Program-made: the position numbers and the translations under genes
Notes under the pieces: generated by a model
What the model was told of the DNA's origin: nothing
Seen by the model: the letters and a program-made list of their open reading frames with translations, nothing else
Databases searched by the model: none
Part shown: in pieces, positions 2,846 to 18,732 of the stretch
How positions within the stretch are numbered: the stretch's first letter is position 1
How the letters are laid out: every line of letters starts with the position of its first letter
Assembly (NCBI GenBank): GCA_049280815.1
Contig: JBAPQW010000053.1
Span: 125,108-189,107 of the forward strand
DNA length: 64,000 bases
Reading direction: 5' to 3'
From: Verrucomicrobiia bacterium
Lineage (GTDB): Bacteria > Verrucomicrobiota > Verrucomicrobiia > Limisphaerales > UBA11358

Positions 2846-3877
2846 TCAGAACTGGCGCAGAAACCGCACGTCGTTTTCGTAAAAGAGCCGGATGTCATTG
2901 ATGCTGTAACGAATCATGGCGATGCGTTCGATGCCAAAGCCGAACGCCCAGCCGGTCCAGATTTCGGGGTCATACCCGACGTTCTCGAACACCTGCGGAT
3001 GCACCATGCCGCAACCGGCGATTTCCAGCCAGTCCTTGCCCATCTTTTTGACCAGCGCGCTGCTGAAATCGATTTCGAAGCTCGGCTCAGTGTAGCTGAA
3101 ATAATGCGGGCGGAAACGGATCTTCACGTCGCTGCCGAGCAGTTCCTTGAAGACGAACTCGACCGTGCCTTTGAGGTCGCCGACGGTGACGCCCTTGTCC
3201 ACGTAAAGCCCTTCAATCTGCTGGAAGGTCGGATTGTGGGTGGCGTCGGCATTGTCGCGGCGATAGACGCGGCCCGGGACGATGATGCGCACCGGCGGCG
3301 GCTGCGATTTCATGACGCGGATTTGGACCGAAGAGGTGTGGGTGCGTAAAAGGAGTTGAGAGTTGACGGTTGATGGTTGAGAGCCATCAGGCTTTGCAAG
3401 GTAGAACGTATCCTGGGCGTCGCGGGCAGGGTGGTCGGCGGGGGTGTTGAGCGCGTCGAAACAATGATACTCGTCCTCGATTTCCGGGCCGTCGGCGACG
3501 GCGAAGCCGAGCTTGCGGAAGGCGCGGACGATGTCTTCGGTCACCTGGGTGAGCGGATGCAGTTTGCCCAGTGCGCGGCGGCGGCCAGGGAGGGTGAAAT
3601 CGGTTGGCTCCTTGGGCAGCGCAGCCTGGAGTTCGAGTTCCGCACGCCGGTCGGCCAGCGCGGCTTCAAGTTCGACCTTGGCGGCGTTGATGAGTTTGCC
3701 GGCGGCGGGCTTTTCCTCCTTGGAGAGCGTGCCGAGCTGTTTCATCAGCGCAGTGAACTTGCCATTAGGCCCGATCCAGGCGCCCTTGGTCTGTTCGAGC
3801 GCGGCGAGGTCGGGCGCGGCTTTTAAATCCGCCAGGGCGGTTTGTTTTAGCGGCTCAATGTCATTGAGAAGTCCCAT
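2846..3877 (-). CDS. pheS: phenylalanine--tRNA ligase alpha subunit
   Basis: Class II aaRS core is recognisable (FRPHYFSYTEPSFE, GWAFGFGIERIAMI). The ORF-track start at 3919 is TTG, so I chose the ATG at 3877 (MGLLNDIEP), giving 343 aa. Confidence 0.9.
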   Translation of the reverse strand: MGLLNDIEPLKQTALADLKAAPDLAALEQTKGAWIGPNGKFTALMKQLGTLSKEEKPAAGKLINAAKVELEAALADRRAELELQAALPKEPTDFTLPGRRRALGKLHPLTQVTEDIVRAFRKLGFAVADGPEIEDEYHCFDALNTPADHPARDAQDTFYLAKPDGSQPSTVNSQLLLRTHTSSVQIRVMKSQPPPVRIIVPGRVYRRDNADATHNPTFQQIEGLYVDKGVTVGDLKGTVEFVFKELLGSDVKIRFRPHYFSYTEPSFEIDFSSALVKKMGKDWLEIAGCGMVHPQVFENVGYDPEIWTGWAFGFGIERIAMIRYSINDIRLFYENDVRFLRQF

Positions 3878-3911
3878 ATGAATCGAAGCTGGAGGATAGA
3901 GGATGGCAGAG

Positions 3912-6691: not shown

Positions 6692-9600
6692 TCAAGGCAT
6701 TTGCAGCAAATAGAATTCCTGCGCTGAGTTGGTTTGCGCGGTGTTGGTGAAAATGAAGCCCCCGAAGCTGTCAAATTGATTGGTCGCAATGGACGTCCAG
6801 TTGGTCACCGGCACCAGAAGATTGGACGACATCAGGACGTAATAGGTGCCATTGTTCGTGCCGCCGAAACCGCTCAAAATAAAAGCCCCACCACCCGGCG
6901 CCGCGACAATGCCGGTAAAACTCAGCGAACCCACGGTCAGGAGCGCGTTGGAACTGGTCACCGACCCCGCGAGGTTCGTGATGGTAACCGTGTAGGTGCC
7001 GTCGTTGGTCAGTTGCACATTGCTGATGATCAGGATATTGCTGATCGAGCCGCTGAACTGGCCCCCATCCACCAGGTTTGTCTCGTTCATCTGCCACTGG
7101 TAACTCAACGGCGCCGTTCCGGTCGCAAGGACGGTCAGGGTCACGGTGGATCCCAGCCCCGCCGTCTGGTTCGTCGGCTGCACGATGATGGCCGGCGGGA
7201 TATTTGTCACCGTCAGGAGGGCATTGGTACTGGTGACGGATCCGCCGGCATTGGTGATGGTGACCGTGTAGTTTCCGATGTTGGTCGTCTGCACATTGGT
7301 GATGGTCAGCACATTGGTGGTCGCGCCGCTGATCTGGCCTCCATCCACCAGGAGGTTCGTCTCGTCCACCTGCCATTGGTAGCTCAATGGCGCCGTCCCG
7401 GTTGCGGTGACCACGAAGGTAATGGTCGATCCCGCCCCCACGGTCTGGTTCGTCGGCTGCAGGGTGATCGCCGGCGGGATATTCGTCACCGTCAAGACGA
7501 CGTAGGAACTGGTCACCGACCCGGCGCTGTTCGTGATGACGACGTTGTAATTTCCGCTGCTGATCTGTCGCACGTCGCCAAAGGTCAGCACCGTGTTGGT
7601 CGCGCCACTGATGAATCCTCCGTTGTAAGGGCCGTTGATCAAGTTCGTCCCGTTCAACTGCCAGTGATAACTCAGCGGTGCCAACCCAATGGCGGTGACC
7701 GCAAAGCTCGGATTCGATCCCACCGCCACGGCCTGGTTCGTTGGCTGCAGTGCCAGGATCACCGGCGACGACGCCACCGCCAGGCCGACCGAACCGGTTA
7801 CCGAACCCCCATAATTGGTGACGACGACCGTGTAGTTTCCGGTGTTGTTCGTCTGCGCATTGTTGATCTTCAATACGGTGGTGGTCACGCCACTGATGTT
7901 GCCGGCGTTCGTCAGGTTCACCCCGCCCACCTGCCATTGATAACTCAACGGCGCGGTTCCAGTTGCGGTGATAGTGAAGGTAACATTCGATCCCGCCACC
8001 ACCGACTGGTTCGTCGGTTGCAAGCTGGTGATCATCGGAGGGATATTTGTCACCAACAGGCTGGCGACCAAGCTGGTGACCGACCCGGAAATGTTCGTTA
8101 CCGTGACCGTGTAGTTGCCGCTGTTGTTCGTCTGGGCGTTGCTGATGTTCAACTGAACGGTGGCGGCGCCACTAATGTTCGCGCCATTAAAAGTTCCATT
8201 CTTCACCAGGTTCGTCCCGTCCCACCATTGGTAAATCAATGGCACCGTACCGATGGCGGTGACAGTAAAGGTCGCCGTTGCTCCCACCGCCATCGATTGA
8301 TCGGTTGGTTGTGCGACAATTATCGGCGACGCCTGCACAGTCAGGGTAGCAACGGAACTGGTGACCGAGCCTCCAAAATTGGTGATGATGACCGTGTAAT
8401 TTCCGCTGTTGGTCAGTTGCACCGTGCTGATCTTCAACGCATTGGTCGTCGCGCCACTGAACTGGCCTCCATTGACGAGGTTGGTCCCGTTCAATTGCCA
8501 GCGGTAACTCAACGGCGCCGTTCCGGTGGCGGTGACCGCCAGGGTCACCGTTGTCCCCACTCCATTCGTCTGGCTCATCGGCTGCATGGTGATCGCCGGC
8601 GGGATGTTCGTCACCGTCAGGCTCGCGACAAGGCTGGTCACCGACCCGGCGAGATTTGTGACGACGACCGTGTAGTTGGGACTGCTGTTGTTCGTCTGCG
8701 CATTGCTGATGATCAGATTGGTGCTGGTGGCGCCGCTGATCTGACCTCCGTTGACCAGATTCGTCCCGTTCAATTGCCAGTGGTAACTCAACGGCACCAT
8801 TCCGATGGCGGTGACATTAAACGTTGCATTCGATCCGACGGCAATTGACAGGTTGGTTGCCGGTTGCATGGTGATCACCGGCGCTCCCAGCACCGTCAGG
8901 CTGACGACCGAACTGGTGACCGAGCCTCCCAAATTGGTGATGACCACCGAGTAGTTGGTGCTGCTGTAGTTCGTGGAAGCGTTGCTGATTTTCAAGATGT
9001 TTGTGCTCGCGCCGGTAATGCTGCCTCCATTCACCAGGTTTGTGCCGTCCACCTGCCATTGGTAACTTAACGGCGCCGGCCCGGTCGCGGTGACGACGAA
9101 GGTTGCCAGCGAACCCATGGATATCGTCTGATTCGTCGGCTGCAGGGTGATCGTTGGCGGGATGTTCGTCACGGTCAGGAGGGCATTCGAACTGGTCGCC
9201 GAGCCGCCGAAATTGGTGACGATGACCGAGTAGCTGCCGCTGTTGGTGGCCTGGGCATTGCTGATGGTCAGCTTGTTGGTGGTCGCGCCACTGATGCTGC
9301 CGCCATTCGCCAGGTTCGTCCCGCCCACCTGCCATTGATAACTTAAAGGCGCCGTCCCGGTCGCGGTGACTGTGAAGGTTACGTTCGATCCCGCCGCCAA
9401 CGTCAGGTTCGTCGGTTGCAAGCTGATGATCGTGGGCGGGATATTGGTCACCGACAGGCTGGCGACCGAACTGGTCACCGATCCGGAAACATTTGTAATG
9501 CTGACCGTATAGTTTCCAGTATTGGTCGTTTGCGCATTGCTGATGATCAGCACATTGGTGGTCGCGCCACTGATGGTCGGGCCGTGGTTGACGGTGCCAT

Positions 9601-12600
9601 TCTTCACCTGGTTCGTTCCATCCCACCATTGGTATCGTAACGGCACCGTTCCGATGGCGGTGACGGCAAAGATCGCCGTCGAACCCACCGCCATCGACTG
9701 GTTGGTGGCCGGTTGCACGGTGATTACGGGGGCCGCCAGCACGGTCAGCACGGCATTGGAACTGGTTACGGATCCGCCATTGTTCGTGATGATGAGCGAG
9801 TAGAATCCGCTGTCGTTTGTCTGCACGCCGGTGATGGTAAGCGTGAAGTTGGTGGCGCCGCTGATGCGCCCGCCATTCACCAGGTTCGTCCCGCTTTTCT
9901 GCCATTGAAATGAGAATGGCTGCGTGCCGCTCCCGCTGACGGTAAATGTCACGGTGGTGCCCACCCCGTTCGTCTGGCTGATTGGTTGAACGGTGATTGA
10001 CGGAGGGATGTTCGTCACCGTGAGGACGGCATTGGAGCTGGTCACCGATCCGGAAATGTTCGTGACGGTGAGCGTGTAGGTGCCGCTGTTGGTGGTCTGC
10101 GCATTGCTGATGGTCAGCACATTGGTGGTCGCGCCACTGATGGTCGGGCCGTTGTTAACGGTGCCATTCTTCACCTGGTTCGTCCCATCCCACCATTGGT
10201 ACCTTAAAGGCACCGTTCCGACTGCGGTGGCGGCAAAGACGGCCGTCGATCCCACGGCCATCATCTGGTTGGTGGCCGGTTGCACGAGGATCACCGGTGA
10301 CGATAGCACCGTCAGGACGGCATTGGAACTGGTTGCCGAGTTGGTGATTCCAGTCATGTTTGTGACGATGACGGTGTAGGTGCCACTGTTGGTCAGCTGC
10401 ACCCCGGTGATGGTCAGCACGTTGGTGGTTGCGCCGCTGAACTGGCCTCCATTCTTCACCAAATTCGTCCCGTCCAACCACCACTGGTAACTCAGCGGCG
10501 CCGTTCCGATGGCGGTGACCGCCAGGGTTACGGTCGTTCCCACCCCGTTTGTCTGGCTGGCCGGTTGCACGACGATCGACGGGAATACATTCGTCACGCC
10601 CAAATACGCAGGGGAACTGGTTATCGCTCCCCCATAATTTGTGACAATCAGCCAGTAGGCTCCGGCGTTGGTTAACTGCGCGGAGCTGATGGTCAGGGTG
10701 GCGCTGTTGGTTGCGCCGCTGATATTTCCCCCATTCACCACGTCAACCCCGTAACGTTGCCATTGCAAATAGAAAGGAAAGGTCCCGGTTCCCGAGGCGC
10801 TGAGGTTCACACTCGTACCGACCCCCACCGTTTGGCTTGCTGGTTGTGTCGTAATGACCGGCGGCTGGGTCGTCAGCGTGATTATGGTCAAAAAGGCGTC
10901 GCTCACGCCGTTAAGGCTGGGATGCAGGGCGCTGTTGGTCAGGAAGTTTGCGGAAAGCGTCTGGCCGATGACGTAGGCATTGCCATTGGTGTAAACCGCG
11001 ATGCCGTAGCCATAATCATTGTTCTGGCCGCCCAGATAGGTGGAATACAACAGGTTGGTGACGGTGGCGCTGAACGCGATGACGAAGGCGTCGCTCTGGC
11101 CGGCATTGTTGGTGAGCATCAGGCTGGGAACGTTGAAGGTCGGAAAATTGACCGAGGAAGCCGAGCCGGTCACAAATATATCTCCCGCCGGGTCCAAGGC
11201 CACCGCGTTGCCGATGTCCACGCCATTGCCGCCGAACAGGGCGGACCAGGCTATGACCGCATTCGTTCCGTCGTCGGTGATTTTGGTGAGAAAAACATTT
11301 GTGGCGAGTGAGCCGGAGGTGTTGGTGGCCAGGAACGACGAGAGGCCAGGGATGCTCGTGCCGATGGTGTTCGGGAAATTGGATGAAATGGTCCCCCCGG
11401 TGACATAGGCGGCGCCGGTGTTGTCCACGACAATGCCCGTGGCCACGTCGTTATTGGTGCTGCCGAGCAGGGTTGAATACACCAGGTTCGTGCCGGTGGG
11501 ATCAAGTTTGGCCACGAAGGCGTCGTAGCTGAAAGTGATGTTGGTCGAGCGGTTCAGCAAATTACCTTCGACCATATTGCCGCCGATCAATTGATGGACG
11601 AAATTGGTGGTTGGAAAATTGGTTGAGGCGGTGTAGCCGGTGACATAAACAAATCCGTTGGTGTCCACGGCGATGCCGGTGCCCGAGTCAAAATTGGTGC
11701 CGCCAAAGTAGGTGGAATAAACCAGCGGCGAACCGCCGGGGCCGATTTTGGCAATGAAGGCGTTGGCGTTGTAGAAAAAGGAATTGGTACAGGCCTGGTT
11801 TTTCTGCAGTGCGTTGACCGTAGGGAAGTTGCTGGAATAGGTGAAGCCAGTCACGTAGGCATTACCTGTCGCATCCAAAGCGATCGCCTTGCCGCAATCC
11901 GTGCTTGAACCGCCGAGATAGGTGGAATAAACCAGATTGGAGCCGCTGGAATCCAATTCCGTCACGAAGGCGTCGACCGGATAATAACCATAACTTGGGT
12001 CGAGTATGCCGCTGATTGTCTTGTAAAGCGCGTTGGTGGAGGTCGGAAAATTGGGCGAATCTGTAAAACCGGTTAAATAGGCGTTGCCGGCGGGATCAAC
12101 GGCGATGCCGAAGGCCCCATCGTCGGCGCTGCCGCCAAGATAGGTGAGATAAGCGGGGACATGGTTTTGAGCGTTAAACTTGCAGACAAACGCGTCCCCG
12201 GTCAAACCGCCCCCGGCAAAATTTGTCTGGAATGCGCCGGGTGTGGAAAAAGATTTGGTGGCGCTAAACTGCGTGGAAAGCGTCTGGCCGGTCACATAGA
12301 CATTGCCATTGGTGTCCAAAGCCACGGCATAAGCCGTGTCACCGTTATTGCCGCCGAAGTAACTTGAATAGCTCAAAAACGGATCAATGACCAGCGGCTG
12401 GCTGAGATCATATTTACCAACCGTGAAGGCGACCGTGTGTGCATCCACCATCCGGTAACCGCCGGTTATTTCTTTTCGCCCGTCAGCCGTTGTCTGGTAA
12501 ATCACCGGTTTGGGCTGCCGAATTTCGCCCCCCGCCAGACTCAAAACCAGTTCGTCCTGCGGGCTGATGGTGATTTTATCCGCTCCGTCAAAATGCATGG

Positions 12601-13087
12601 TGATGGCCTGCGGGTTGGCGCCCGGCGCCACGGTGAAATCATATTCAAGCCGATGCTGATTGCCGTAGTAAACCAGATCCACGCCGGGATAAAGCCCGCC
12701 GACGCGGACCTGGGCGAACATGGGCACGCCCGTACGCCACCGCTCGGGATTGTTGCCGGTGAGGTAGTTGATTTTGCCGGGCAATTCGGTGCCGCCGCAG
12801 ATGAGCGCCTGCAGATTGGCGCCGGCGAATTGCAGGTGTACGCCGGCGGGCTTGGCGCCGGTCTGGCGAAGTCCAATTTGCACTTCGGTCGGCGCAATCA
12901 AAAATTGGTAATCCTGGCCGCGGGCCATGAACTGCTCCGGGGCATCGGCCTGAACCTGCCTGGCCTCAAAGTAAAGCGGCAGATCGACCGGCATCGCGGT
13001 TGGCGCGGCCATGGCCGGCAACACCAGCAGGCCCAAGGCCAGCCCGGGGAGGCCCGCCGACAGAATGTTTTTTGCCAGACGAATCAT
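6692..13087 (-). CDS. giant secreted repeat protein: 7 SBBP beta-propeller repeats plus 14 Ig-like (I-set-like) domains
   Basis: 2131 aa from the ATG at 13087, with signal peptide MIRLAKNILSAGLPGLALGLLVLPAMAAP. There are seven Y[VL]TG.T.S.NFPT-type repeats, then 14 domains of about 90-95 aa. The domain pattern is QP..Q.V..GS..TF.V.A.GT.PLSYQWQ..G.NL...(ISGATT).L.I.N.Q..N.G.Y.V.VTN..GSVTS. The C-terminal module of about 85 aa is unassigned. Confidence 0.85.
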   Translation of the reverse strand: MIRLAKNILSAGLPGLALGLLVLPAMAAPTAMPVDLPLYFEARQVQADAPEQFMARGQDYQFLIAPTEVQIGLRQTGAKPAGVHLQFAGANLQALICGGTELPGKINYLTGNNPERWRTGVPMFAQVRVGGLYPGVDLVYYGNQHRLEYDFTVAPGANPQAITMHFDGADKITISPQDELVLSLAGGEIRQPKPVIYQTTADGRKEITGGYRMVDAHTVAFTVGKYDLSQPLVIDPFLSYSSYFGGNNGDTAYAVALDTNGNVYVTGQTLSTQFSATKSFSTPGAFQTNFAGGGLTGDAFVCKFNAQNHVPAYLTYLGGSADDGAFGIAVDPAGNAYLTGFTDSPNFPTSTNALYKTISGILDPSYGYYPVDAFVTELDSSGSNLVYSTYLGGSSTDCGKAIALDATGNAYVTGFTYSSNFPTVNALQKNQACTNSFFYNANAFIAKIGPGGSPLVYSTYFGGTNFDSGTGIAVDTNGFVYVTGYTASTNFPTTNFVHQLIGGNMVEGNLLNRSTNITFSYDAFVAKLDPTGTNLVYSTLLGSTNNDVATGIVVDNTGAAYVTGGTISSNFPNTIGTSIPGLSSFLATNTSGSLATNVFLTKITDDGTNAVIAWSALFGGNGVDIGNAVALDPAGDIFVTGSASSVNFPTFNVPSLMLTNNAGQSDAFVIAFSATVTNLLYSTYLGGQNNDYGYGIAVYTNGNAYVIGQTLSANFLTNSALHPSLNGVSDAFLTIITLTTQPPVITTQPASQTVGVGTSVNLSASGTGTFPFYLQWQRYGVDVVNGGNISGATNSATLTISSAQLTNAGAYWLIVTNYGGAITSSPAYLGVTNVFPSIVVQPASQTNGVGTTVTLAVTAIGTAPLSYQWWLDGTNLVKNGGQFSGATTNVLTITGVQLTNSGTYTVIVTNMTGITNSATSSNAVLTVLSSPVILVQPATNQMMAVGSTAVFAATAVGTVPLRYQWWDGTNQVKNGTVNNGPTISGATTNVLTISNAQTTNSGTYTLTVTNISGSVTSSNAVLTVTNIPPSITVQPISQTNGVGTTVTFTVSGSGTQPFSFQWQKSGTNLVNGGRISGATNFTLTITGVQTNDSGFYSLIITNNGGSVTSSNAVLTVLAAPVITVQPATNQSMAVGSTAIFAVTAIGTVPLRYQWWDGTNQVKNGTVNHGPTISGATTNVLIISNAQTTNTGNYTVSITNVSGSVTSSVASLSVTNIPPTIISLQPTNLTLAAGSNVTFTVTATGTAPLSYQWQVGGTNLANGGSISGATTNKLTISNAQATNSGSYSVIVTNFGGSATSSNALLTVTNIPPTITLQPTNQTISMGSLATFVVTATGPAPLSYQWQVDGTNLVNGGSITGASTNILKISNASTNYSSTNYSVVITNLGGSVTSSVVSLTVLGAPVITMQPATNLSIAVGSNATFNVTAIGMVPLSYHWQLNGTNLVNGGQISGATSTNLIISNAQTNNSSPNYTVVVTNLAGSVTSLVASLTVTNIPPAITMQPMSQTNGVGTTVTLAVTATGTAPLSYRWQLNGTNLVNGGQFSGATTNALKISTVQLTNSGNYTVIITNFGGSVTSSVATLTVQASPIIVAQPTDQSMAVGATATFTVTAIGTVPLIYQWWDGTNLVKNGTFNGANISGAATVQLNISNAQTNNSGNYTVTVTNISGSVTSLVASLLVTNIPPMITSLQPTNQSVVAGSNVTFTITATGTAPLSYQWQVGGVNLTNAGNISGVTTTVLKINNAQTNNTGNYTVVVTNYGGSVTGSVGLAVASSPVILALQPTNQAVAVGSNPSFAVTAIGLAPLSYHWQLNGTNLINGPYNGGFISGATNTVLTFGDVRQISSGNYNVVITNSAGSVTSSYVVLTVTNIPPAITLQPTNQTVGAGSTITFVVTATGTAPLSYQWQVDETNLLVDGGQISGATTNVLTITNVQTTNIGNYTVTITNAGGSVTSTNALLTVTNIPPAIIVQPTNQTAGLGSTVTLTVLATGTAPLSYQWQMNETNLVDGGQFSGSISNILIISNVQLTNDGTYTVTITNLAGSVTSSNALLTVGSLSFTGIVAAPGGGAFILSGFGGTNNGTYYVLMSSNLLVPVTNWTSIATNQFDSFGGFIFTNTAQTNSAQEFYLLQMP
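6935..10875 (-). repeat. in-frame tandem array encoding 14 Ig-like domains
   Basis: I counted 14 [LF].[YF][QHR]W[QW] motifs. Units are about 270-290 bp, and some non-adjacent units are about 90% identical at DNA level (for example 9531-9720 vs 10098-10287). Confidence 0.8.
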
Positions 13088-13088
13088 T

Positions 13089-15560
13089 TTAAAAGGGGCG
13101 TTGCCAGCCGACACCGAATTGGAAACGGCCGCCCCCGCCGTTGTACTGATCGTGATGGATCGGAATGCCATATTCAAGCCGCAACGGACCAAGTTTCGGA
13201 ATGTTGATATGCAGGCCAAGGCCCCAGTCATCATCAAAATTTCCCGAGGTCGCATAGGAATAGGATTTCATGCCAACTTCGCCGATATCATAGAACAGGG
13301 CGAAGCGCACGCCAGGACCGTTGTCGGTTTCAAAAACGGGCAGGGTGTATTCCACCGAGCCGAACCACATGGTGTCGCCGCCAATCGGTTCGTTGGCCAT
13401 ATTGGGGTTGATGCCGTACGTCGGGTCGCGCGGAGAGACATTGCGGAATTTGAAGCCGCGGAGCGAATAAAGGCCGCCGAGGTAATACTGGTCATAAAAT
13501 GGCACGTCGCCGCCGCTCAGACTGTCCGCAATCCCGGTGCGTCCCACCACCTCCAGCACGTGGCCGGTGAACAGGCCGGGGAAATACCAGGCGGTTTTGA
13601 TTTGCAGTTTGTAATACGTGATGTCCCCGAGGCTGATTTCCGGGTCGAATTCCGTTCGTTGGCCGTGGTTCGGCAGTTTCGTGCTGTTGCGGGTGTCATA
13701 GGCGATCGTGGTGCCAAAACGGTTGTACAAATGATCGCCGGTTTGCTCGATTATGGCCGTAGGCGTATTCCCCTGCACCGGTTGTGGAACTCCATTTATC
13801 GTCTGGAATTCGTTTCCATGCCAACCGCTGTTCAGGCTGATGCCCACGTCCTCGAGGGTATAGCTGATGCTGCCGATGAAAAAGTCGCTCCACAGCGCGC
13901 GCGTCAAGCTCAGGCGCATGCCGGTGCGGGTTTCGTCATAAATATTGTTGGGGCTTTCGAAATTCAATTGATGCCGGTAGAGATCCACGCCGAACGCGAG
14001 CTTCTTGTTCATAAACCACGGTTCGACAAACGACAGCTCATAGTCCTGGCGCTTGGTGCCGAGCTGAACGAACAGGCGCAGTTTCTGGCCGGCGCCGGTG
14101 AACGTGGGCGGATGGAACAGGTCCGCATTCCCTTGCGAAACCTCGACGTAACCGACGAGCGAATCCACGGAACTGAAGCCGGCGCCGAGCATGAAGTTGC
14201 CGGTGTTCTTTTCATCCACGTTCACGATCAAATCCTTGCGCCCGGCAATCGGGGGATCGGTCGCTTGCGGCCGCATGTCCACCTTCTCAAAATAATCGAG
14301 CCCTTCGAGGCGTTGCTGGCTGATCTTGACGCGCACCATGTCAAACACCTCGCCCGGCGCAATCGCCAGTTCCCGGCGGATGACCTTGTCCTTGGTTTTT
14401 TCATTGCCGCGGATGTCGATTCTTTCGACGTGGGATTTATCGCCTTCCTTGATTTGAAATTCCAGGTCCATCGTGCCCGTTTCCACGTTGGGAATGTACT
14501 CGGCGCGCAGCGTCGGTCCCCGCACCACGTCAATGTAACCCTTGCTGCCGTAAAAATCCTCGATGGCCTGCGTGTCCTTGTCCAGACCCTCGGGGGTGAA
14601 AATGCCGCCGGTATCCATCGCCAGGCCATGCGGTCCGAGTTTGGCCTTGGAATGCTGGAAGTCGTGGACGGCTTCCAGGCCGAGGTGGATTTGTTCCACG
14701 GTGAACAGTTTGTTGCCGGTGAAGACGACCGAGCCGACCTTGTATTGCCGTCCTTCGTAAAGGTAAAACTTGATGACCATCGAGTTGGTGGTCGGGTGGT
14801 CGAACCGCACGTCCTTGATTTCAAAGTCCAGATAGCCGTGATTGTGGTAAAAGTCGGTGAGCGCTTCGCGGTCATCCTGGAACTGGTCCTCCTTGAACAC
14901 GCCGTTGCCGGACAGCCACGACCACATCCAGTGCCGCTTGGTCTTGATCTGTTTGCGCAGCTCCTTTTGGGTGTAGGCGGCCGCGCCGATGAAATCGAGC
15001 GCCTGGATTTTGATCTTCGTCGCCTCGGTGATGACAAACGTGACCGTGCCGCGTCCGGCATTTTCGTCTATGTCCAGGACATACTTTGCCTGCGAGCCGG
15101 CATAACCGTATTTTTCGTAAAGCTTCTGGATTTCCTGGCTGTCGGTGAACAGCTTCTGCTCGTCGAGCGGCTGGCCCGTCTTGACCGTGATTTTTTTCTT
15201 TATCTTTGAGGTGCTGACCTTTTTGTTGCCCTCAATTTTGATGTCCGTCAGCCGCGGCCTCGCCTGCACCAGATAAGTCAGGATCACGCCGCCGGCATCG
15301 CCCGGGTCCACCGTGACGCGGATGTTGTAAAACTGTCCGGTCGCATAGAGCGAATGGATGTCATCCTCGGTGGCGGCGGGGAAATAGGTGTCGCCCGCCT
15401 TGAGGCGGATGTTGGCCCGGACGTAGGGCTCGCTGACCGAGGCGGGGCCGACATACTTCACGTCCAGCCGCTCGATTTTCGGGCCGGCGGGCTGCGACCA
15501 CGCGACCGACGCGCAGGCCAGCAACAGCCAGGCCCCGAAAAGGCGGGAAAAATATTTCAT
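13089..15560 (-). CDS. bamA: outer membrane protein assembly factor BamA
   Basis: 823 aa with a signal peptide. It has POTRA-like N-terminal repeats (IERLDVKYVG, IKIEGNKKVS, IQALDFIGA, VVFTGNKLF, IDIRGNEKT) and an Omp85 barrel ending in QRPF. Confidence 0.9.
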   Translation of the reverse strand: MKYFSRLFGAWLLLACASVAWSQPAGPKIERLDVKYVGPASVSEPYVRANIRLKAGDTYFPAATEDDIHSLYATGQFYNIRVTVDPGDAGGVILTYLVQARPRLTDIKIEGNKKVSTSKIKKKITVKTGQPLDEQKLFTDSQEIQKLYEKYGYAGSQAKYVLDIDENAGRGTVTFVITEATKIKIQALDFIGAAAYTQKELRKQIKTKRHWMWSWLSGNGVFKEDQFQDDREALTDFYHNHGYLDFEIKDVRFDHPTTNSMVIKFYLYEGRQYKVGSVVFTGNKLFTVEQIHLGLEAVHDFQHSKAKLGPHGLAMDTGGIFTPEGLDKDTQAIEDFYGSKGYIDVVRGPTLRAEYIPNVETGTMDLEFQIKEGDKSHVERIDIRGNEKTKDKVIRRELAIAPGEVFDMVRVKISQQRLEGLDYFEKVDMRPQATDPPIAGRKDLIVNVDEKNTGNFMLGAGFSSVDSLVGYVEVSQGNADLFHPPTFTGAGQKLRLFVQLGTKRQDYELSFVEPWFMNKKLAFGVDLYRHQLNFESPNNIYDETRTGMRLSLTRALWSDFFIGSISYTLEDVGISLNSGWHGNEFQTINGVPQPVQGNTPTAIIEQTGDHLYNRFGTTIAYDTRNSTKLPNHGQRTEFDPEISLGDITYYKLQIKTAWYFPGLFTGHVLEVVGRTGIADSLSGGDVPFYDQYYLGGLYSLRGFKFRNVSPRDPTYGINPNMANEPIGGDTMWFGSVEYTLPVFETDNGPGVRFALFYDIGEVGMKSYSYATSGNFDDDWGLGLHINIPKLGPLRLEYGIPIHHDQYNGGGGRFQFGVGWQRPF

Positions 15561-15563
15561 CGG

Positions 15564-17036
15564 CTATCGGTCCACCGGCACGTCTTCGTCGCTGACTTTG
15601 GCTGCGCTTTCAAAACGAGTGTACGGCTTCAAAAAGGTTAAATTCACATCGCCCGTGGGGCCATTGCGCTGCTTGGCGATCAACAGATTGACCGGCAGGC
15701 CCTCCGGCTCTTCCGCCGCGGCACCCTCTTCATCGTCGCCGGCGTTCGGTTTGTACAACAGACCTACCACGTCGGCATCCTGTTCAATCGCGCCGGATTC
15801 GCGCAGATCAGACAACCGCGGCTTGCGGCTCTTGTCCTTCTCCAGTTCGCGGTTCAACTGGCTGAGCACGAGCACCGGCACCTTCAATTCCTTCGCCAGC
15901 GCCTTGAGACCGCTGGAAATGTCCGCAATTTCCTGCTGCCGGTTCTCCTGTGAACGCCGCGCAGTAGAATGCAATAACTGGAGATAATCAACCACAAAAA
16001 GCTTCACCCCGTGCTGCTGCGCCAGCCGCCGCGCCCGCGCCCGGAGCTGCAGAATTGAAAGCCCCGCCGAATCATCAATGAACAACGGCGCGTTCGCCAG
16101 CCGGCCCGCCGCGCTGGTCAGCTTCGGAAAATCCGACTCGCTCATGAAACCTTCCCGGATGCTCCGCAGGTTCACCCGCGCGATGGAACACATCATGCGC
16201 AAGACCAGCGCCTCGGCGCTCATTTCCAGGCTGAACACGGCCGCCGGCAGCTTTTGCTCCAGCACGACGTGCTCCACGATGTTCATCGCGAGGGACGTCT
16301 TGCCCATGGATGGCCGCGCGGCGATGACGACCATCTCGCTCCCGTGCAGCCCGTCGGTCATCCGGTCCAGGTCCGCAAAGCCCGTCCCCAGCCCGCTCAA
16401 CACACCCTTGCGGCTGAAATAATTCTCAATCGTCCCGATCGCCTTGCCCACCAGTTCCTTGGTTGACAGCACGGCGCCCTGCACGCGCGCCTCGCTGATG
16501 CGCAACACGTCGCGCTCCACCTCGTCCATCAGCGCGTCCACCTCGCCCTCGTAATCATAGACCCGCCCGACGACGTCCGTGCAGGTGTGGATCATTTTCC
16601 GCAGCAGGAATTTCTCGCGTACGATCTCCAGATAGTAGGAAAGATTCGCCGCGCTCGGCACCGCGTCCTGCAACTGTGCCAGGTAGGCAATGCCGCCAAC
16701 CTGCTCCAGGAGTTGCTGGTCCTTGAGCCGTTGCTGGACCGTGATGACGTCGATGGCCTCGCGCGTGTCGAACATGGTCACGAGGGTTTCGAAAATTGTC
16801 TGGTGCCGCAGGTCGTAGAAAACCTCCCGGCCGTCCCCCCGGATTTTTTCCAGGCATTCGCCCATGCACTCGTTCGGCGAGAGCAGGACGCAGCCCAGCA
16901 CGCCCTGTTCGGCCTCGGGCGAATGCGGCGGCAACCGGTCAACGGTGGGGCGGGCGTCGGCGCGCGCCGCTTTTTGCCGGCGGGTCTTCTTTAAATCGGC
17001 GGCGGCCCCGGCGGCTTCGGAAACGGAATCAATCAT
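15564..17036 (-). CDS. dnaB: replicative DNA helicase DnaB
   Basis: DnaB N-terminal domain (PPHSPEAEQGVLGCVLL), Walker A (ARPSMGKTS) and the RecA-like core are present. The start is the ATG at 17036 or the upstream codon at 17060. Confidence 0.9.
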   Translation of the reverse strand: MIDSVSEAAGAAADLKKTRRQKAARADARPTVDRLPPHSPEAEQGVLGCVLLSPNECMGECLEKIRGDGREVFYDLRHQTIFETLVTMFDTREAIDVITVQQRLKDQQLLEQVGGIAYLAQLQDAVPSAANLSYYLEIVREKFLLRKMIHTCTDVVGRVYDYEGEVDALMDEVERDVLRISEARVQGAVLSTKELVGKAIGTIENYFSRKGVLSGLGTGFADLDRMTDGLHGSEMVVIAARPSMGKTSLAMNIVEHVVLEQKLPAAVFSLEMSAEALVLRMMCSIARVNLRSIREGFMSESDFPKLTSAAGRLANAPLFIDDSAGLSILQLRARARRLAQQHGVKLFVVDYLQLLHSTARRSQENRQQEIADISSGLKALAKELKVPVLVLSQLNRELEKDKSRKPRLSDLRESGAIEQDADVVGLLYKPNAGDDEEGAAAEEPEGLPVNLLIAKQRNGPTGDVNLTFLKPYTRFESAAKVSDEDVPVDR

Positions 17037-17072
17037 GGCGCAACAAGAGGGGAGTTCCACCCCGGTGGCAAA

Positions 17073-17109
17073 TTTGACTTATTGGTTTTTGATAACACGA
17101 TCTTCACAA
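17073..17109 (+). repeat. 37-nt direct repeat, copy 1
   Basis: TTTGACTTATTGGTTTTTGATAACACGATCTTCACAA. It matches copy 2 at 36 of 37 positions. Confidence 0.9.
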
Positions 17110-17186
17110 TCAACAAGCTTCCTGTGGATACTTTCAGAACAAGTTCCAGTTGTCAGCAGAAAGATTGTTTGGGAAATTAGAAATAG

Positions 17187-17300
17187 AATGCAGGCCGAGG
17201 GCGGTTTTGGAAGCCGCCAGTTTGACATCGGTTGCCTAATCAGCGTGGTTGAGTTTGGACCTCAACAACTCGCCGACACCAAAACAACCCGGCCTGCATT
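17187..17300. other. inverted-repeat-closed structured element (candidate ncRNA/leader or MITE)
   Basis: A perfect 11-bp inverted repeat, AATGCAGGCCG (17187-17197) and CGGCCTGCATT (17290-17300), encloses two hairpins. These are GGCGG-N9-CCGCC (17200-17218) and GTTGAG-TTTGGAC-CTCAAC (17248-17266). Confidence 0.35.
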
Positions 17301-17333
17301 TAATGTTTTATGTGAAAGTGGCAGGGTTGAAAG

Positions 17334-17370
17334 TTTGACTTATTGGTTTTTGATAACACGGTCTTCACAA
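17334..17370 (+). repeat. 37-nt direct repeat, copy 2
   Basis: TTTGACTTATTGGTTTTTGATAACACGGTCTTCACAA. It lies 261 bp downstream of copy 1 and 73 nt upstream of the MFS ATG. Confidence 0.9.
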
Positions 17371-17442
17371 AGAGAATTAAATTCCCCGCGGCCAACTTGG
17401 TTGACTCGTCTCCAAACAACACTAGACTTTGCGCGGTTCAAA

Positions 17443-18732
17443 ATGTATCGCAAGCCATCATTGCTGGTTGTTTTCCTGACGGTCTTCATTGACCTCATCG
17501 GTTTCGGCATCGTTGTGCCGCTGGTGCCGATCTTCAGCCGGCATTACGGCGCGGGCGGCTTTGTCATCGGCGCCATCATCGCCTCCTTCTCCGCGATGCA
17601 ATTTGTTTTCTCGCCGATTTGGGGACGGCTTTCCGACCGGCACGGTCGCCGGCCAATTTTGCTCCTCAGCACCGCCGGTGCGGCATTGTCGTACATGCTG
17701 TTCGCCATCGGTTCGGGTTTTGAAAATCACACTGCCGCGCTTTGGGCCCTGCTGGTCTCGCGCCTCTTCGCCGGCATCTGCGGCGGCAACATCACCGTCG
17801 CCCAGGCTTACATCGCCGACATCACCCCGCCGGAAAACCGGTCCAAACGGATGGGACTCATCGGCATGGCCTTCGGACTGGGGTTTATTTTCGGTCCGGC
17901 AATCAGCGGGATCGCCCTGCATTTCTTTGGCGCCACCGGTCCGGGTTGGGCCGCCGCGGCGCTTTGCGCGGCCAATTTCATCCTGGCGTACTGCATCCTT
18001 GCTGAAAGCTTGAAACCAGAATCCAGCCAGGCGGCCCGGCGCCCGCATTTTGCGCAATGGGGGCACACCCTGACCCAGCCGAAAATCGGTTTGTTGATCC
18101 TGATTTTCTTCCTGGCCACGTTCGCCTTCAGTTGTTTTGAAAGCACCCTGCCATTGCTGGTCAGCGACAATTTTAATCTCGGCATCACCGTGGACGAAAC
18201 CAGGCCCGCGACGACGGTCATCTCGTTGTTTGTCTTTTGCGGGCTCATCGGCGCCTTCATCCAGGGCGGCGCCATCGGCCGGCTGGTCAAAATCTTCGGC
18301 GAACCGAAACTGATTTCGCTGAGCCTGGTGTTGACCGGCATCAGCCTGATCCTCCTGCCGTACATCAAAGGCGACGGCCAGCTCAAGTGGTTGGCCGTTC
18401 TGCACGCGACCGACTGGCCGTGGATTAAAATGCTTCTGGCCCTGGCGCTGCTGGCCATCGGTTCCGCTCTGACGCGCCCGCCGCTCTTCGGATTGCTTTC
18501 AAATCTCGCCCCCGCCAACGAACAGGGCGCCACCATCGGTGTGGCGCAGAGCGCCGGGGCCTTGGCGCGCATTCTCGGCCCGCTGTTTGCCGCCATCCTT
18601 TACCTGCGCATCGCGCCCTTGCCGTATGTCGTTTGTGGAGGATTGTCCATCCTGGCCGCCCTGTTGACCTGGCTGTATCTCTGCCGGAAAAACTCCGCGC
18701 CGACGGGCGTGGCCGGAATTCCACCGCAATAA
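17443..18732 (+). CDS. MFS transporter (DHA1/TetA-like efflux type)
   Basis: 429 aa from the ATG at 17443 (MYRKPSLLVVFLTVFIDLIGFGIVVPLVP). It has the MFS motif GRLSDRHGRRP and about 12 hydrophobic segments. Confidence 0.85.
   Translation: MYRKPSLLVVFLTVFIDLIGFGIVVPLVPIFSRHYGAGGFVIGAIIASFSAMQFVFSPIWGRLSDRHGRRPILLLSTAGAALSYMLFAIGSGFENHTAALWALLVSRLFAGICGGNITVAQAYIADITPPENRSKRMGLIGMAFGLGFIFGPAISGIALHFFGATGPGWAAAALCAANFILAYCILAESLKPESSQAARRPHFAQWGHTLTQPKIGLLILIFFLATFAFSCFESTLPLLVSDNFNLGITVDETRPATTVISLFVFCGLIGAFIQGGAIGRLVKIFGEPKLISLSLVLTGISLILLPYIKGDGQLKWLAVLHATDWPWIKMLLALALLAIGSALTRPPLFGLLSNLAPANEQGATIGVAQSAGALARILGPLFAAILYLRIAPLPYVVCGGLSILAALLTWLYLCRKNSAPTGVAGIPPQ

Follow-up and report, generated by a model that had tools for sequence, protein, structure and literature searches.

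A candidate small-RNA gene beside dnaB in uncultured Limisphaerales-like Verrucomicrobia

Introduction

Verrucomicrobiota subdivision 3 (Limisphaerales/Pedosphaerales) is abundant in soils and peat and mostly uncultured, and to our knowledge almost no regulatory RNAs have been described from it. In an uncultured soil or peat Verrucomicrobium of a Limisphaerales-like clade, the spacer between dnaB and a divergent MFS transporter gene holds a foldable element framed by direct repeats. Is this element an RNA and, if so, is it a leader of one of its neighbours or a small RNA (sRNA) with a gene of its own? We addressed this question in a 64-kb stretch of DNA that contains the spacer (the window), and in related genomes and metagenome contigs.

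The two neighbouring genes are readily assigned. dnaB encodes a replicative DNA helicase of 490 aa (15564-17036, minus strand; Pfam DnaB, E = 4e-30; DnaB_C, E = 3e-98), and the MFS gene encodes a transporter of 429 aa (17443-18732, plus strand; Pfam MFS_1, E = 7e-61); an exact-sequence look-up found neither protein recorded. A first-pass annotation of the window had described the spacer as AT-richer than its flanks, and so it is, at 42-47% GC between flanks of about 60%. The reading frame of the MFS gene stays open through the entire spacer, so that gene callers may mask an RNA here beneath an over-extended ORF.

Results

The element folds into five helices supported by compensatory changes

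The structured core occupies 17186-17301 and is given here as read on the plus strand. It is closed by helix P1 (17186-17199 with 17288-17301), which includes a perfect 11-bp inverted repeat, AATGCAGGCCG and CGGCCTGCATT, at 17187-17197 and 17290-17300. Within P1 lie P2 (17200-17207 with 17211-17218), whose loop reads (U)UUUGGAA(G), and P3 (17221-17232 with 17272-17283), which in turn encloses P4 (17233-17235 with 17243-17245) and P5 (17248-17253 with 17261-17266), with the loop UUUGGAC. The inverted repeat that closes a 114-nt region had been reported in the first-pass annotation, as had two hairpins at 17200-17218 and 17248-17266 with TTTGG in both loops, and all are present. The three-way-junction-like fold proposed there was right in having a junction but wrong in having a single one, because the comparative data give two that are nested, P1/P2/P3 and P3/P4/P5. 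The fold is more stable than that of shuffled sequence on either strand (z = -3.9 on the plus strand and -5.1 on the minus strand).

We assembled 40 homologues, five from DnaB-anchored loci in 80 related genomes and 35 from metagenome contigs. Full-length matches to the covariance model, at 105-137 bits, were obtained at 5 of the 80 genomic loci and for all 35 metagenome pattern matches. Because the metagenome search pattern demanded GGCCGAG, TTTTGGA and GAGTTTGGA, the invariance of those stretches is partly built in. The loops of P2 and P5 share an invariant UUUGGA. When the homologues were aligned to the model, 93.5% of cells were paired and 14 pairs had changed on both sides, compared with 33-41% of cells paired in slid controls; an independent MAFFT alignment gave 95.1% paired cells and 10 doubly changed pairs, with slid controls at 28-40%. 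None of 500 shuffles matched the observed pairing and double-change values in either alignment. P3 pairs swap UA for AU and CG for UA between two sequence types, and compensatory changes are found elsewhere, from CG to UA in P1 and from GC to AU in P2. Each of the helices P1-P5 has support from compensatory changes, and the 114-nt structure is not a chance fold. Conservation and covariation, whose absence had been named as evidence against a functional RNA, are thus both present.

A further pairing and a sequence likeness were considered and set aside. A pseudoknot between GUUUUGG of the P2 loop and CCAAAAC is broken in type II sequences, whereas P3 compensates. The likeness is between GTTTTGGAAGCCGCC of P2 and codons 5-9 of dnaB, identical at 13 of 15 positions, which we take to be chance in a GC-rich, Ala/Gly-coding context.

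The element is tied to dnaB and not to the gene downstream

In all loci with sufficient flank, the 5' end of the element lies 139-179 nt from the start codon of dnaB, on the opposite strand, and every metagenome match with flank adjoins dnaB. This constancy bears on the first-pass suggestion that the element is either a small RNA or a cis-regulatory leader of the MFS gene. A riboswitch or other leader of the downstream efflux gene would account for a structured, conserved element without a known family, and the element does lie upstream of an MFS gene and on its strand, in the window as in about 20 further loci. In many loci, however, the downstream gene is a different one or sits 1.1-9.9 kb away, while the distance to dnaB holds. 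Further, a promoter of the MFS gene's own (TTGACT-16-TAGACT, 17401-17428, plus strand, found by promoter scan) follows the element and is conserved in RNA-bearing and RNA-free relatives alike; neither a terminator nor a sequestering hairpin separates element and ORF; and the element is missing from near-identical strains that carry the same MFS gene. The link to the MFS gene is thus largely refuted and we give it very little credence; the small-RNA half of the suggestion is the one that conservation, covariation and a conserved promoter (see below) favour.

The element lies in an accessory unit bracketed by a duplicated dnaB-upstream block

The first-pass annotation had also pointed to two near-identical 37-mers in the same orientation, and these we confirmed at 17073-17109 and 17334-17370 (36 of 37 matches; 261-bp period). 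A repeat search extended this core to 46 nt at 91% identity (42 of 46 positions), giving a dnaB-proximal copy 1 at 17064-17109 and a distal copy 2 at 17325-17370. No further copies of the repeat occur within the 64-kb window, where shuffles lead one to expect 0 matches, and a search of the window for a second occurrence of GAATAACTTTGTGAA, from the dnaB-upstream block, found none.

Comparison with relatives identifies the repeat. All relatives have a conserved block some 30 nt upstream of dnaB, which in RNA-free ones is a single-copy homologue of copy 1 (type A) at the same distance from dnaB, and the distal 37-mer is a second copy of this block. The repeat had been read as a possible duplicated promoter or operator module, which is partly right: it is a duplicated conserved upstream block, one that belongs to dnaB and not to the MFS gene. 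On the dnaB strand, copy 1 carries a promoter-like TTGTGA-N17-ACCAAT (TTCAAT in relatives) and includes TGTGAAGAT, which is similar to a DnaA box. The distal block follows P1 by about 35 nt in every RNA-bearing locus and is usually diverged ('type B', CAAGACAAAGTTGTTTTTCTTGTTCACAAAGTTATTCGCC), with no convincing sigma-70 promoter assignable in that type; the 35 nt separating the element from copy 2 are poorly conserved.

RNA-free strains have one copy of the dnaB-upstream block and a spacer shorter by about 260 bp. Four pairs of near-identical strains differ in this way (L005/L082, L016/L099, L034/L104 and L072/L113), and their flanks are about 100% identical as far as the dnaB ATG and repeat copy 2. 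The indel is bounded by these two points, which lie outside P1 by about 150 nt and by 25-35 nt, respectively. Some strains of this clade carry the unit of about 260 bp and near-identical ones lack it, which makes it an accessory, cassette-like locus.

A unit that comes and goes between flanking repeats might be a MITE-like element with P1 as its terminal inverted repeats and a long duplicated target, its structure being selected as DNA or not at all. The inverted repeat of 11-14 bp that bounds the 114-nt core is of the kind this would require, and the sRNA sequence types are discordant with the DnaB tree. By contrast, many dispersed copies, which the first-pass annotation had named as pointing to a plain mobile repeat, were not found: each locus has a single copy, neither the rest of the 64-kb window nor any of 75 'empty' loci has another, and all metagenome matches with flank are at the same site. 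The indel ends at the dnaB ATG and copy 2 and not at the ends of P1, the internal helices show compensatory changes, and the duplication of 37-46 nt contrasts with the short target duplication expected of a MITE or REP. Plasmid, phage and viral matches to the element were sought by blastn and by a pattern scan of viral contigs, and there were none. What survives of the mobile-element proposal is its insertion-like aspect, in the presence/absence pattern and the flanking duplication; as an account of the element as a whole we consider it quite improbable.

Conserved promoter-like blocks suggest a separate transcript on the plus strand, probably ending in a U-rich tail

Directly upstream of the core, on the strand opposite dnaB, lies a predicted promoter for the sRNA (17150-17178, plus strand), with TTGTCA as -35 element (17150-17155), TGG+GAAATT as extended -10 element (17170-17178) and a spacer of 17 nt. 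It stops about 7 nt short of P1, and its general form among the homologues is TTGTCA-N14-TGn-GAAAnT. The pattern TTGnnA-N14-TGn-RRRAnT fits 32 of 35 distinct homologues, all 32 with a spacer of 17 nt. The blocks keep a fixed distance to P1, and 26 of the 32 have 11 nt from the end of the -10 element to GCAGGC. The -10 hexamer of the window (GAAATT) is weak, and a simple consensus promoter scan did not flag it. The conservation of these blocks suggests that the sRNA has a promoter of its own.

At the other end, P1 is followed by a U-rich tail (17302-17315, plus strand; AUUUAAUGUUUUAU in the window, counted from 17299), which we take to be the probable region of the 3' end. Its consensus is A-U-Y-U-M-A-A-W-U-Y-U-U-C, and of 33 sequences 32 have A at +7 and 31 have U at +9; T makes up 41% of the tail, compared with 21% of the window. 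A scan of the window found no canonical terminator after the element. Transcription of the candidate sRNA, and the positions of both its ends, are predictions.

Which strand is read as RNA is indicated by the kinds of pairs that are tolerated. When core pairs are read on the plus strand, G-U outnumbers A-C by 58 to 24, and alternations of U-G with U-A, which would be A-C mismatches on the minus strand, are frequent at two pairs. RNAalifold energies (-71.8 for the plus and -75.0 for the minus strand) do not separate the strands. The G-U counts, which come from few positions, and the promoter lend moderate support to the plus strand.

These observations bear on a further explanation, in which the structure is read on the minus strand within a long 5' leader of dnaB that starts from copy 2 (17325-17370) and regulates dnaB in cis. 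Such a leader would explain why the linkage of the element to dnaB is strict and constant, and why a distal block is found in every RNA-bearing locus when the same block adjoins dnaB in element-free strains; and the minus strand folds no worse than the plus strand. On the other hand, the G-U bias and the U-G/U-A alternations favour the plus strand, the conserved blocks between the element and dnaB are spaced like a plus-strand promoter, the stretch that would join copy 2 to the element is the poorly conserved one, and dnaB retains its proximal block, copy 1. We therefore regard a dnaB leader as unlikely, while a plus-strand sRNA remains the reading that we prefer.

The predicted start site also lies 1-4 nt upstream of an NTG triplet that 39 of the 41 sequences have in the corresponding place, and the first 26 codons appear conserved, as would be expected of a leaderless gene for a small protein beginning at ATG 17188 (MQAEGGFGSRQFDIGCL...). 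Stops and frameshifts refute this possibility. Two sequences (L107 and L113) have TAG at codon 2, made by a compensatory change in P1; others stop after 10 codons (L097) or 21 (L082); and three are frameshifted (L071, L090 and L017), one of which (L017) reads GTA where the start codon would be. A difference of 1 nt separates the two main length classes of the element, and substitutions are compensatory and not clustered at third codon positions. The element is non-coding, and the chance that it is a protein gene is minimal.

Between the divergent dnaB and sRNA promoters, at 17123-17131 on the minus strand, there is a DnaA-box-like nonamer, GTATCCACA, that matches TTATCCACA at 8 of 9 positions, and an alignment of the upstream regions of 35 distinct sequences shows the TGTGGATAT/TGTGAATAC block to be conserved. 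DnaA may bind the predicted nonamer. The conservation of DnaA-box-like nonamers in an AT-richer spacer between divergent genes could suggest a replication element acting as DNA, either an origin or a DnaA-binding cruciform adjoining dnaB. Yet DnaA boxes are not enriched, the window holding 9 where 6.9 are expected and the spacer a single 8-of-9 match; GC skew does not change sign at 17 kb, the unit is missing from near-identical strains, and the G-U bias suggests selection at the level of RNA. A role as an origin is accordingly hardly credible.

The element resembles several known RNAs in part and matches none

The first-pass annotation had recognized no known RNA family in the spacer, and database searches agree: Rfam 15 gave no match to 17184-17303 when the whole window was scanned at gathering thresholds, none at E <= 10 in 16500-18000, and none at E <= 5 in seven homologous loci. 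ARAGORN found 0 tRNA-like genes in the window, and our literature search found no description of an sRNA adjoining dnaB in Verrucomicrobia.

A close likeness in loop design is the TwoAYGGAY RNA motif (RF01731), a candidate sRNA of unknown function with two hairpins that share the same GGA-containing terminal loop (nYGGAn). It is listed as a probable RNA that is not cis-regulatory (PMC2864571). Its sources are the human gut, Gammaproteobacteria and Clostridiales, whereas our element occurs in other taxa. Like TwoAYGGAY, the element has two hairpins with the same short GGA loop, here UUGGAC and UUGGAA. Unlike it, the element begins each loop with U and not A, sets the hairpins within a fold of five helices that a long stem closes, and gives no match to the covariance model at E <= 10.

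Repeated GGA in hairpin loops is also a feature of CsrB, RsmY and RsmZ, independently transcribed sRNAs that sequester protein and have 5-22 GGA loops in an A(N)GGA context. A dimeric protein could likewise bridge two loops of the element, but these are only two and their context is UUUGGA(A/C). We know of no CsrB/Rsm-type sRNA in Verrucomicrobiota. A tblastn search for CsrA and Hfq with approximate query sequences found neither in the window or in 115 loci, which cover less than 2% of each genome.

Other sRNAs present the same seed in several hairpin loops, among them RsaE/RoxS, with C-rich loops, and the alphaproteobacterial anti-Shine-Dalgarno 'cuckoo' sRNAs. The element shares with them an identical motif in two loops, a stand-alone gene and a (predicted) promoter of its own; its UUUGGA is neither C-rich nor anti-Shine-Dalgarno. 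We found no conserved target site in the neighbouring dnaB or MFS leaders, and the pairing that RNAduplex predicts between the RNA and the 5' region of dnaB was not better than for shuffled sequence (z from +0.6 to -2.8), with no conserved site.

The loops can also be compared with anticodon loops. The thrS operator has two anticodon-like hairpins that are bound by dimeric ThrRS, and the element similarly has two stem-loops with 7-nt loops in anticodon-loop format (U-U-UGG-A-N), though it is not in the leader of a synthetase mRNA. Its loop sequence resembles that of tRNA-Pro(UGG), UUUGGGA, except that position 37 is A and not G.

Finally, pairing of the two transcript ends in one long helix is typical of stable, protein-bound RNAs, and the predicted 5' and 3' ends of the element pair in this way, as do those of 6S RNA, 4.5S/SRP RNA and Y RNA. 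It differs from these in that it has no Rfam match to any of them and two nested three-way junctions, and lacks both a central bubble and the motifs of SRP domain IV, and it is accessory (5 of 80 related genomes) where 6S and SRP RNAs are near-universal.

Discussion

We conclude that 17150-17315 (plus strand) is probably a self-contained gene for a small RNA that belongs to an undescribed family. A sigma-70-type promoter with an extended -10 element (TTGTCA-N14-TGG-GAAATT) would start the RNA at about 17185, at the foot of P1. The transcript, of some 115-130 nt, would fold with P1 as a long closing helix around the two nested junctions, display a UUUGGA loop on each of P2 and P5, and probably terminate in the U-rich tail right after P1. 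The gene would stand back to back with dnaB, inside the upstream regulatory region of dnaB and with the conserved block of that region duplicated on either side, and the unit of about 260 bp has probably been exchanged or lost through recombination.

Such an RNA would probably act in trans, with the twin UUUGGA loops as its contact surface. One option is that the loops bind a dimeric RNA-binding protein, which may be a CsrA-like GGA binder or a reader of the tRNA-Pro(UGG) anticodon loop; another is that they are redundant seeds for base-pairing with UCCAAA of target mRNAs. The RNA gene and dnaB share a divergent promoter region with a conserved DnaA-box-like site, and would probably be co-regulated through it. 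We infer both the partner and this regulatory connection.

There is a rather slim chance of a bolder scheme, in which the unit is a new accessory cassette of promoter plus RNA that targets the duplicated dnaB regulatory block, or is retained only in it, and in which the loops, being like the tRNA-Pro(UGG) anticodon loop and also containing GGA, titrate a dimeric protein, or the duplicated distal dnaB promoter drives antisense transcription through the RNA gene. If this were true, replication would have an RNA-based layer of control that varies between strains and, with antisense drive, its expression and that of the helicase would be mutually coupled.

As a small-RNA gene, the element would represent a new RNA family for this clade, well supported by its covariation, its promoter and its constant genomic position. 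Its site is unusual, within the control region of an essential helicase gene and bracketed by a duplication of that region. Its concealment under an over-extended MFS ORF is an annotation risk. The twin UUUGGA loops offer a concrete, testable handle for a partner search, and near-identical strains with and without the RNA constitute a natural experiment on its role.

A structured region flanked by direct repeats lies between dnaB and an MFS gene

The spacer between dnaB (15564-17036, minus strand) and an MFS transporter gene (17443-18732, plus strand) is less GC-rich than its surroundings (42-47% vs ~60% in the flanks), as the first-pass annotation had it. The pair of 37-mers described there (36/37 matches) is present and is contained in a longer direct repeat of 46 nt (17064-17109 and 17325-17370; 91% identity, period 261 bp), recovered by a repeat search; with up to three mismatches allowed, the 37-mer has no third site in the 64-kb window, and shuffles expect 0. 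Also present are the perfect 11-bp inverted repeat AATGCAGGCCG / CGGCCTGCATT (17187-17197 and 17290-17300) and two hairpins (17200-17218 and 17248-17266), each with TTTGG in its loop. A stretch of 136 nt forms a better fold than shuffled sequence does, on either strand (z = -3.9 and -5.1). Rfam 15 gave no match, neither at gathering thresholds nor at E <= 10, in keeping with the first-pass annotation, which recognized no riboswitch or RNA family there; the whole window contains no tRNA gene and no Rfam match.

The MFS reading frame is free of stops from 16864 to the end of the gene at 18732 (plus strand), running open across the dnaB start, the spacer and the structured region, with ATG 17188 in frame; gene prediction could extend the MFS N-terminus too far and so hide the RNA. 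Downstream of dnaB, on the minus strand, are genes for a BamA-type Omp85/POTRA protein (13089-15560) and a 2187-aa protein (6692-13255) with ~14 immunoglobulin I-set domains, SBBP beta-propeller repeats and a DUF7948 domain.

Compensatory changes among relatives support a selected RNA

A DnaB-anchored scan with one genome per species yielded 80 loci, all from MAGs of Verrucomicrobiota (Limisphaerales, 'subdivision 3') whose DnaB shares 74-91% identity with that of the window; blastn, followed by a covariance model from the first matches, found the element in just five (L012, L017, L035, L054 and L071). Metagenome contigs were scanned with a pattern derived from the RNA alone, GGCCGAGNNNNNTTTTGGA-N30-55-GAGTTTGGA, without use of dnaB. 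This returned 35 contigs, chiefly from peat, bog and soil, every one with a full-length covariance-model match (105-137 bits). Viral contigs gave no match to this pattern, nor did plasmids and phages to the spacer by blastn. Ten contigs (L023, L026, L030, L032, L035, L048, L049, L058, L060 and L064) are labelled Bifidobacteriaceae, Bifidobacterium, Pseudomonadales, Methylomirabilota or Acidiferrales and encode DnaB 78-86% identical to the window's verrucomicrobial protein; their bins are probably mislabelled or contaminated.

The consensus from 35 distinct sequences comprises five helices: P1 (17186-17199 with 17288-17301), P2 (17200-17207 with 17211-17218), P3 (17221-17232 with 17272-17283), P4 (17233-17235 with 17243-17245) and P5 (17249-17253 with 17261-17265, plus one extra pair, 17248/17266). 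In the model-fitted alignment 93.5% of cells are paired and 14 pairs have changed on both sides; an independent MAFFT alignment of 25 sequences gives 95.1% and 10 pairs. These values are reached in neither alignment by any of 500 shuffles, a control that ignores relatedness among the sequences, and slid partners are only 33-41% and 28-40% paired, respectively.

Covariation is clearest in P3, which occurs as two sequence types, UUUGACAUCGG...CCGACGCCAAA and AUUUUUGUCGG...CCAACAUCAAU; there, 21 sequences have UA and 9 have AU at pair 39/103, and at pair 44/97 the split is 16 CG to 12 UA. P1 changes from CG to UA in L107 and L113, P2 varies among GGCAG/CUGCC, GAGCGG/CCGCU and AGUGG/CCACC, and the pair extending P5 is A-U in 18 sequences, G-C in 10, G-U in 3 and unpaired A-C in 4. 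P2 and P5 carry one invariant loop core, UUUGGA, within the loops UUUGGAA and UUUGGAC. Because the search pattern fixed the P2 loop, half of P5 and some of P1, invariance there is in part imposed, although these stretches are also invariant in the six sequences found without it. The conservation and covariation that the first-pass annotation had proposed looking for are thus evident in relatives, and we conclude with high confidence that the element is a real, selected RNA.

Pair types and a promoter signature favor the plus strand

RNAalifold did not separate the strands. The pair types favor the plus strand, on which core pairs include 58 G-U and 24 A-C. Two pairs alternate between U-G and U-A (19 vs 15 and 25 vs 7), and these alternations would be A-C mismatches on the minus strand. 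In the 70 nt upstream on the plus strand, evenly kept distances separate conserved blocks, and the sequence between them varies: TTGTCA-N14-TGn-GAAAnT fits 32 of the 35 distinct sequences, always with a 17-nt spacer (32/32), and 11 nt separate the end of the -10 from GCAGGC in 26 of the 32. This signature also argues for the plus strand. The blocks of the predicted promoter in the window (-35 at 17150-17155; TGG+GAAATT at 17170-17178, plus strand) would place the start site at ~17185, at the foot of P1. P1 is followed by a conserved U-rich tail, A-U-Y-U-M-A-A-W-U-Y-U-U-C (41% T vs 21% in the window), from which we infer the 3' end, no canonical terminator following the element in the window. 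Together, these features give moderate support to the plus strand and to independent transcription.

An NTG at 17188, near the predicted start, in 39 of 41 sequences led us to consider a leaderless small ORF. We rejected it: TAG is codon 2 in L107 and L113, through the C-to-U change that P1 compensates; the frame stops after 10 codons in L097 and after 21 in L082; L071, L090 and L017 are frameshifted; and there are two main length classes, 1 nt apart.

Linkage of the element to dnaB rather than the MFS gene

Wherever a locus includes enough flank, the dnaB start codon sits on the other strand, 139-179 nt upstream of where the element begins (its 5' end), and this is so although dnaB played no part in the metagenome scan. 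A dnaB match is missing from just two loci, L083 and L087, in both of which the element is at a contig end. An MFS transporter lies 241-410 nt from the 5' end in ~20 loci; elsewhere the downstream gene is different or the MFS gene is 1.1-9.9 kb distant. A promoter of its own (TTGACT-16-TAGACT, 17401-17428) serves the MFS gene and is conserved in relatives without the element. The constant dnaB distance, variable downstream gene and separate MFS promoter tie the element to the dnaB upstream region; the suggestion of a small RNA or leader for the MFS gene therefore keeps its small RNA, backed by covariation and promoter, and loses its MFS link. A second covariance model, built from all 41 element sequences, found no further copy in the window or in 75 element-free loci, so the element is not a dispersed repeat, as the MITE option would have it. 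An origin was also rejected: DnaA boxes are not enriched (9 found vs 6.9 expected) and GC skew keeps its sign near 17 kb. The element is neither an MFS riboswitch, a MITE, a tRNA-like gene, a small ORF nor an origin.

In two contigs dnaB itself appears split, perhaps by an intein or other insertion: L105 has DnaB residues 247-488 2.4 kb from the element and the start codon adjoining it, and in L103 residues 1-246 alone match beside the element.

In element-free relatives the spacer measures 135-172 bp and contains one conserved block ~30 nt from the dnaB start (for example CAAAACGGAGTTATTGAATCTTAATGACACGTTCTTCACAAG in L003). Across the order the type A block, TTGTGA-N17-TTCAAT-AACTC on the dnaB strand, has the look of a promoter and includes the DnaA-box-like TGTGAAGAA; in other lineages the block is shorter (type B or type C), with GAATAACTNTGTGAAY in common. 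At 406 bp, the window's spacer is longer than such an empty one by 261 bp, precisely one repeat period. Loci with the RNA are all arranged alike: dnaB comes first, followed by block copy 1, a conserved TGTGGATAT box (8/9 matches to a DnaA box), the small RNA promoter, the small RNA, ~35 poorly conserved nt and block copy 2. The earlier idea of a duplicated promoter/operator module holds to the extent that the 37-mer is a duplicated, promoter-like block, but that block belongs to dnaB. The two copies are near-identical in few lineages alone (41/42 in L012, 41/44 in L104, 42/46 in the window, 37/47 in L097, 35/43 in L085), the remaining loci sharing just the core AAAGTTnTTCACAA. Lineage-specific bases common to both copies (TTGGTTTTTG in the window, TTGAATTTTG in L012) suggest recent homogenization and not an ancient perfect duplication.

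Near-identical strains differ in carrying the RNA unit

Carriers and non-carriers are interleaved on a DnaB neighbor-joining tree, down to near-identical DnaB pairs (L005/L082, L016/L099, L034/L104 and L072/L113). Pairwise alignments show flanks ~100% identical, with divergence from the dnaB ATG to the start of block copy 2. P3 type is not congruent with this tree: the window has type I and its closest DnaB relative, L097, type II. By these comparisons, the unit acts as an accessory allele or cassette that recombination probably exchanges or removes. L025 (~3600-3900; dnaB-MFS spacer 402 bp) looks like a decayed or disrupted copy, retaining the small RNA promoter along with 12 nt from the 5' end of the RNA (TTATGCAGGCCGAAC); the remainder is unrelated GC-rich palindromic sequence, and the second model scores only 14.6 bits.

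Other insertions occur at this site. L007, L015, L092, L101 (~836-1030), L093 and L008 share one, directly after the TTATTCGCC end of the dnaB-upstream block and starting GTCACCGGAGGTTCTTTCAAAAC(T/C)GTAGCAGCCGACG, that looks like a MITE-like repeat inserted repeatedly at one spot; its near-perfect hairpin in L101 (947-1022) is the source of chance miRNA-like Rfam matches. L019 and L029 (spacers ~700 bp), L031, L043 and L076 have unrelated insertions, including small ORF-like sequences. In this clade the region upstream of dnaB looks like a hot spot for insertions.

A candidate trans-acting small RNA divergent from dnaB

The best-supported reading is that the element would be a stand-alone, stable, trans-acting small RNA, transcribed divergently from dnaB, with a shared regulatory region that would serve both. 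Its UUUGGA loops might be GGA-in-loop sites for a dimeric protein, by analogy with CsrA/Rsm small RNAs or the TwoAYGGAY motif; tblastn found neither CsrA nor Hfq in the window and 115 loci, which cover <2% of a genome. The loops might instead mimic the anticodon loop of tRNA-Pro(UGG), with a 7-nt loop, U33, UGG and a purine at position 37 as the common features, or be duplicated seeds pairing with UCCAAA in targets. Our confidence in any specific partner is low. Predicted pairing of the RNA with the dnaB leader does not exceed that of shuffled sequence. The P2 hairpin GTTTTGGAAGCCGCC (17204-17218) resembles dnaB mRNA codons 5-9, GTTTCCGAAGCCGCC (17010-17024), at 13/15 positions, so that the 5' half of P2 could pair with dnaB mRNA there; this pairing does not differ significantly from that of shuffled sequence, and its conservation is only partial. 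As a secondary possibility, block copy 2 may serve dnaB as a distal promoter whose transcript runs antisense across the RNA gene, which would couple the two genes.

A literature search found no description of such an RNA. The element represents a new family in an established kind, the structured small RNAs of bacteria. To date it is limited to a single clade of uncultured Verrucomicrobiota from soil and peat, and its position in the dnaB control region is unusual and strain-variable.
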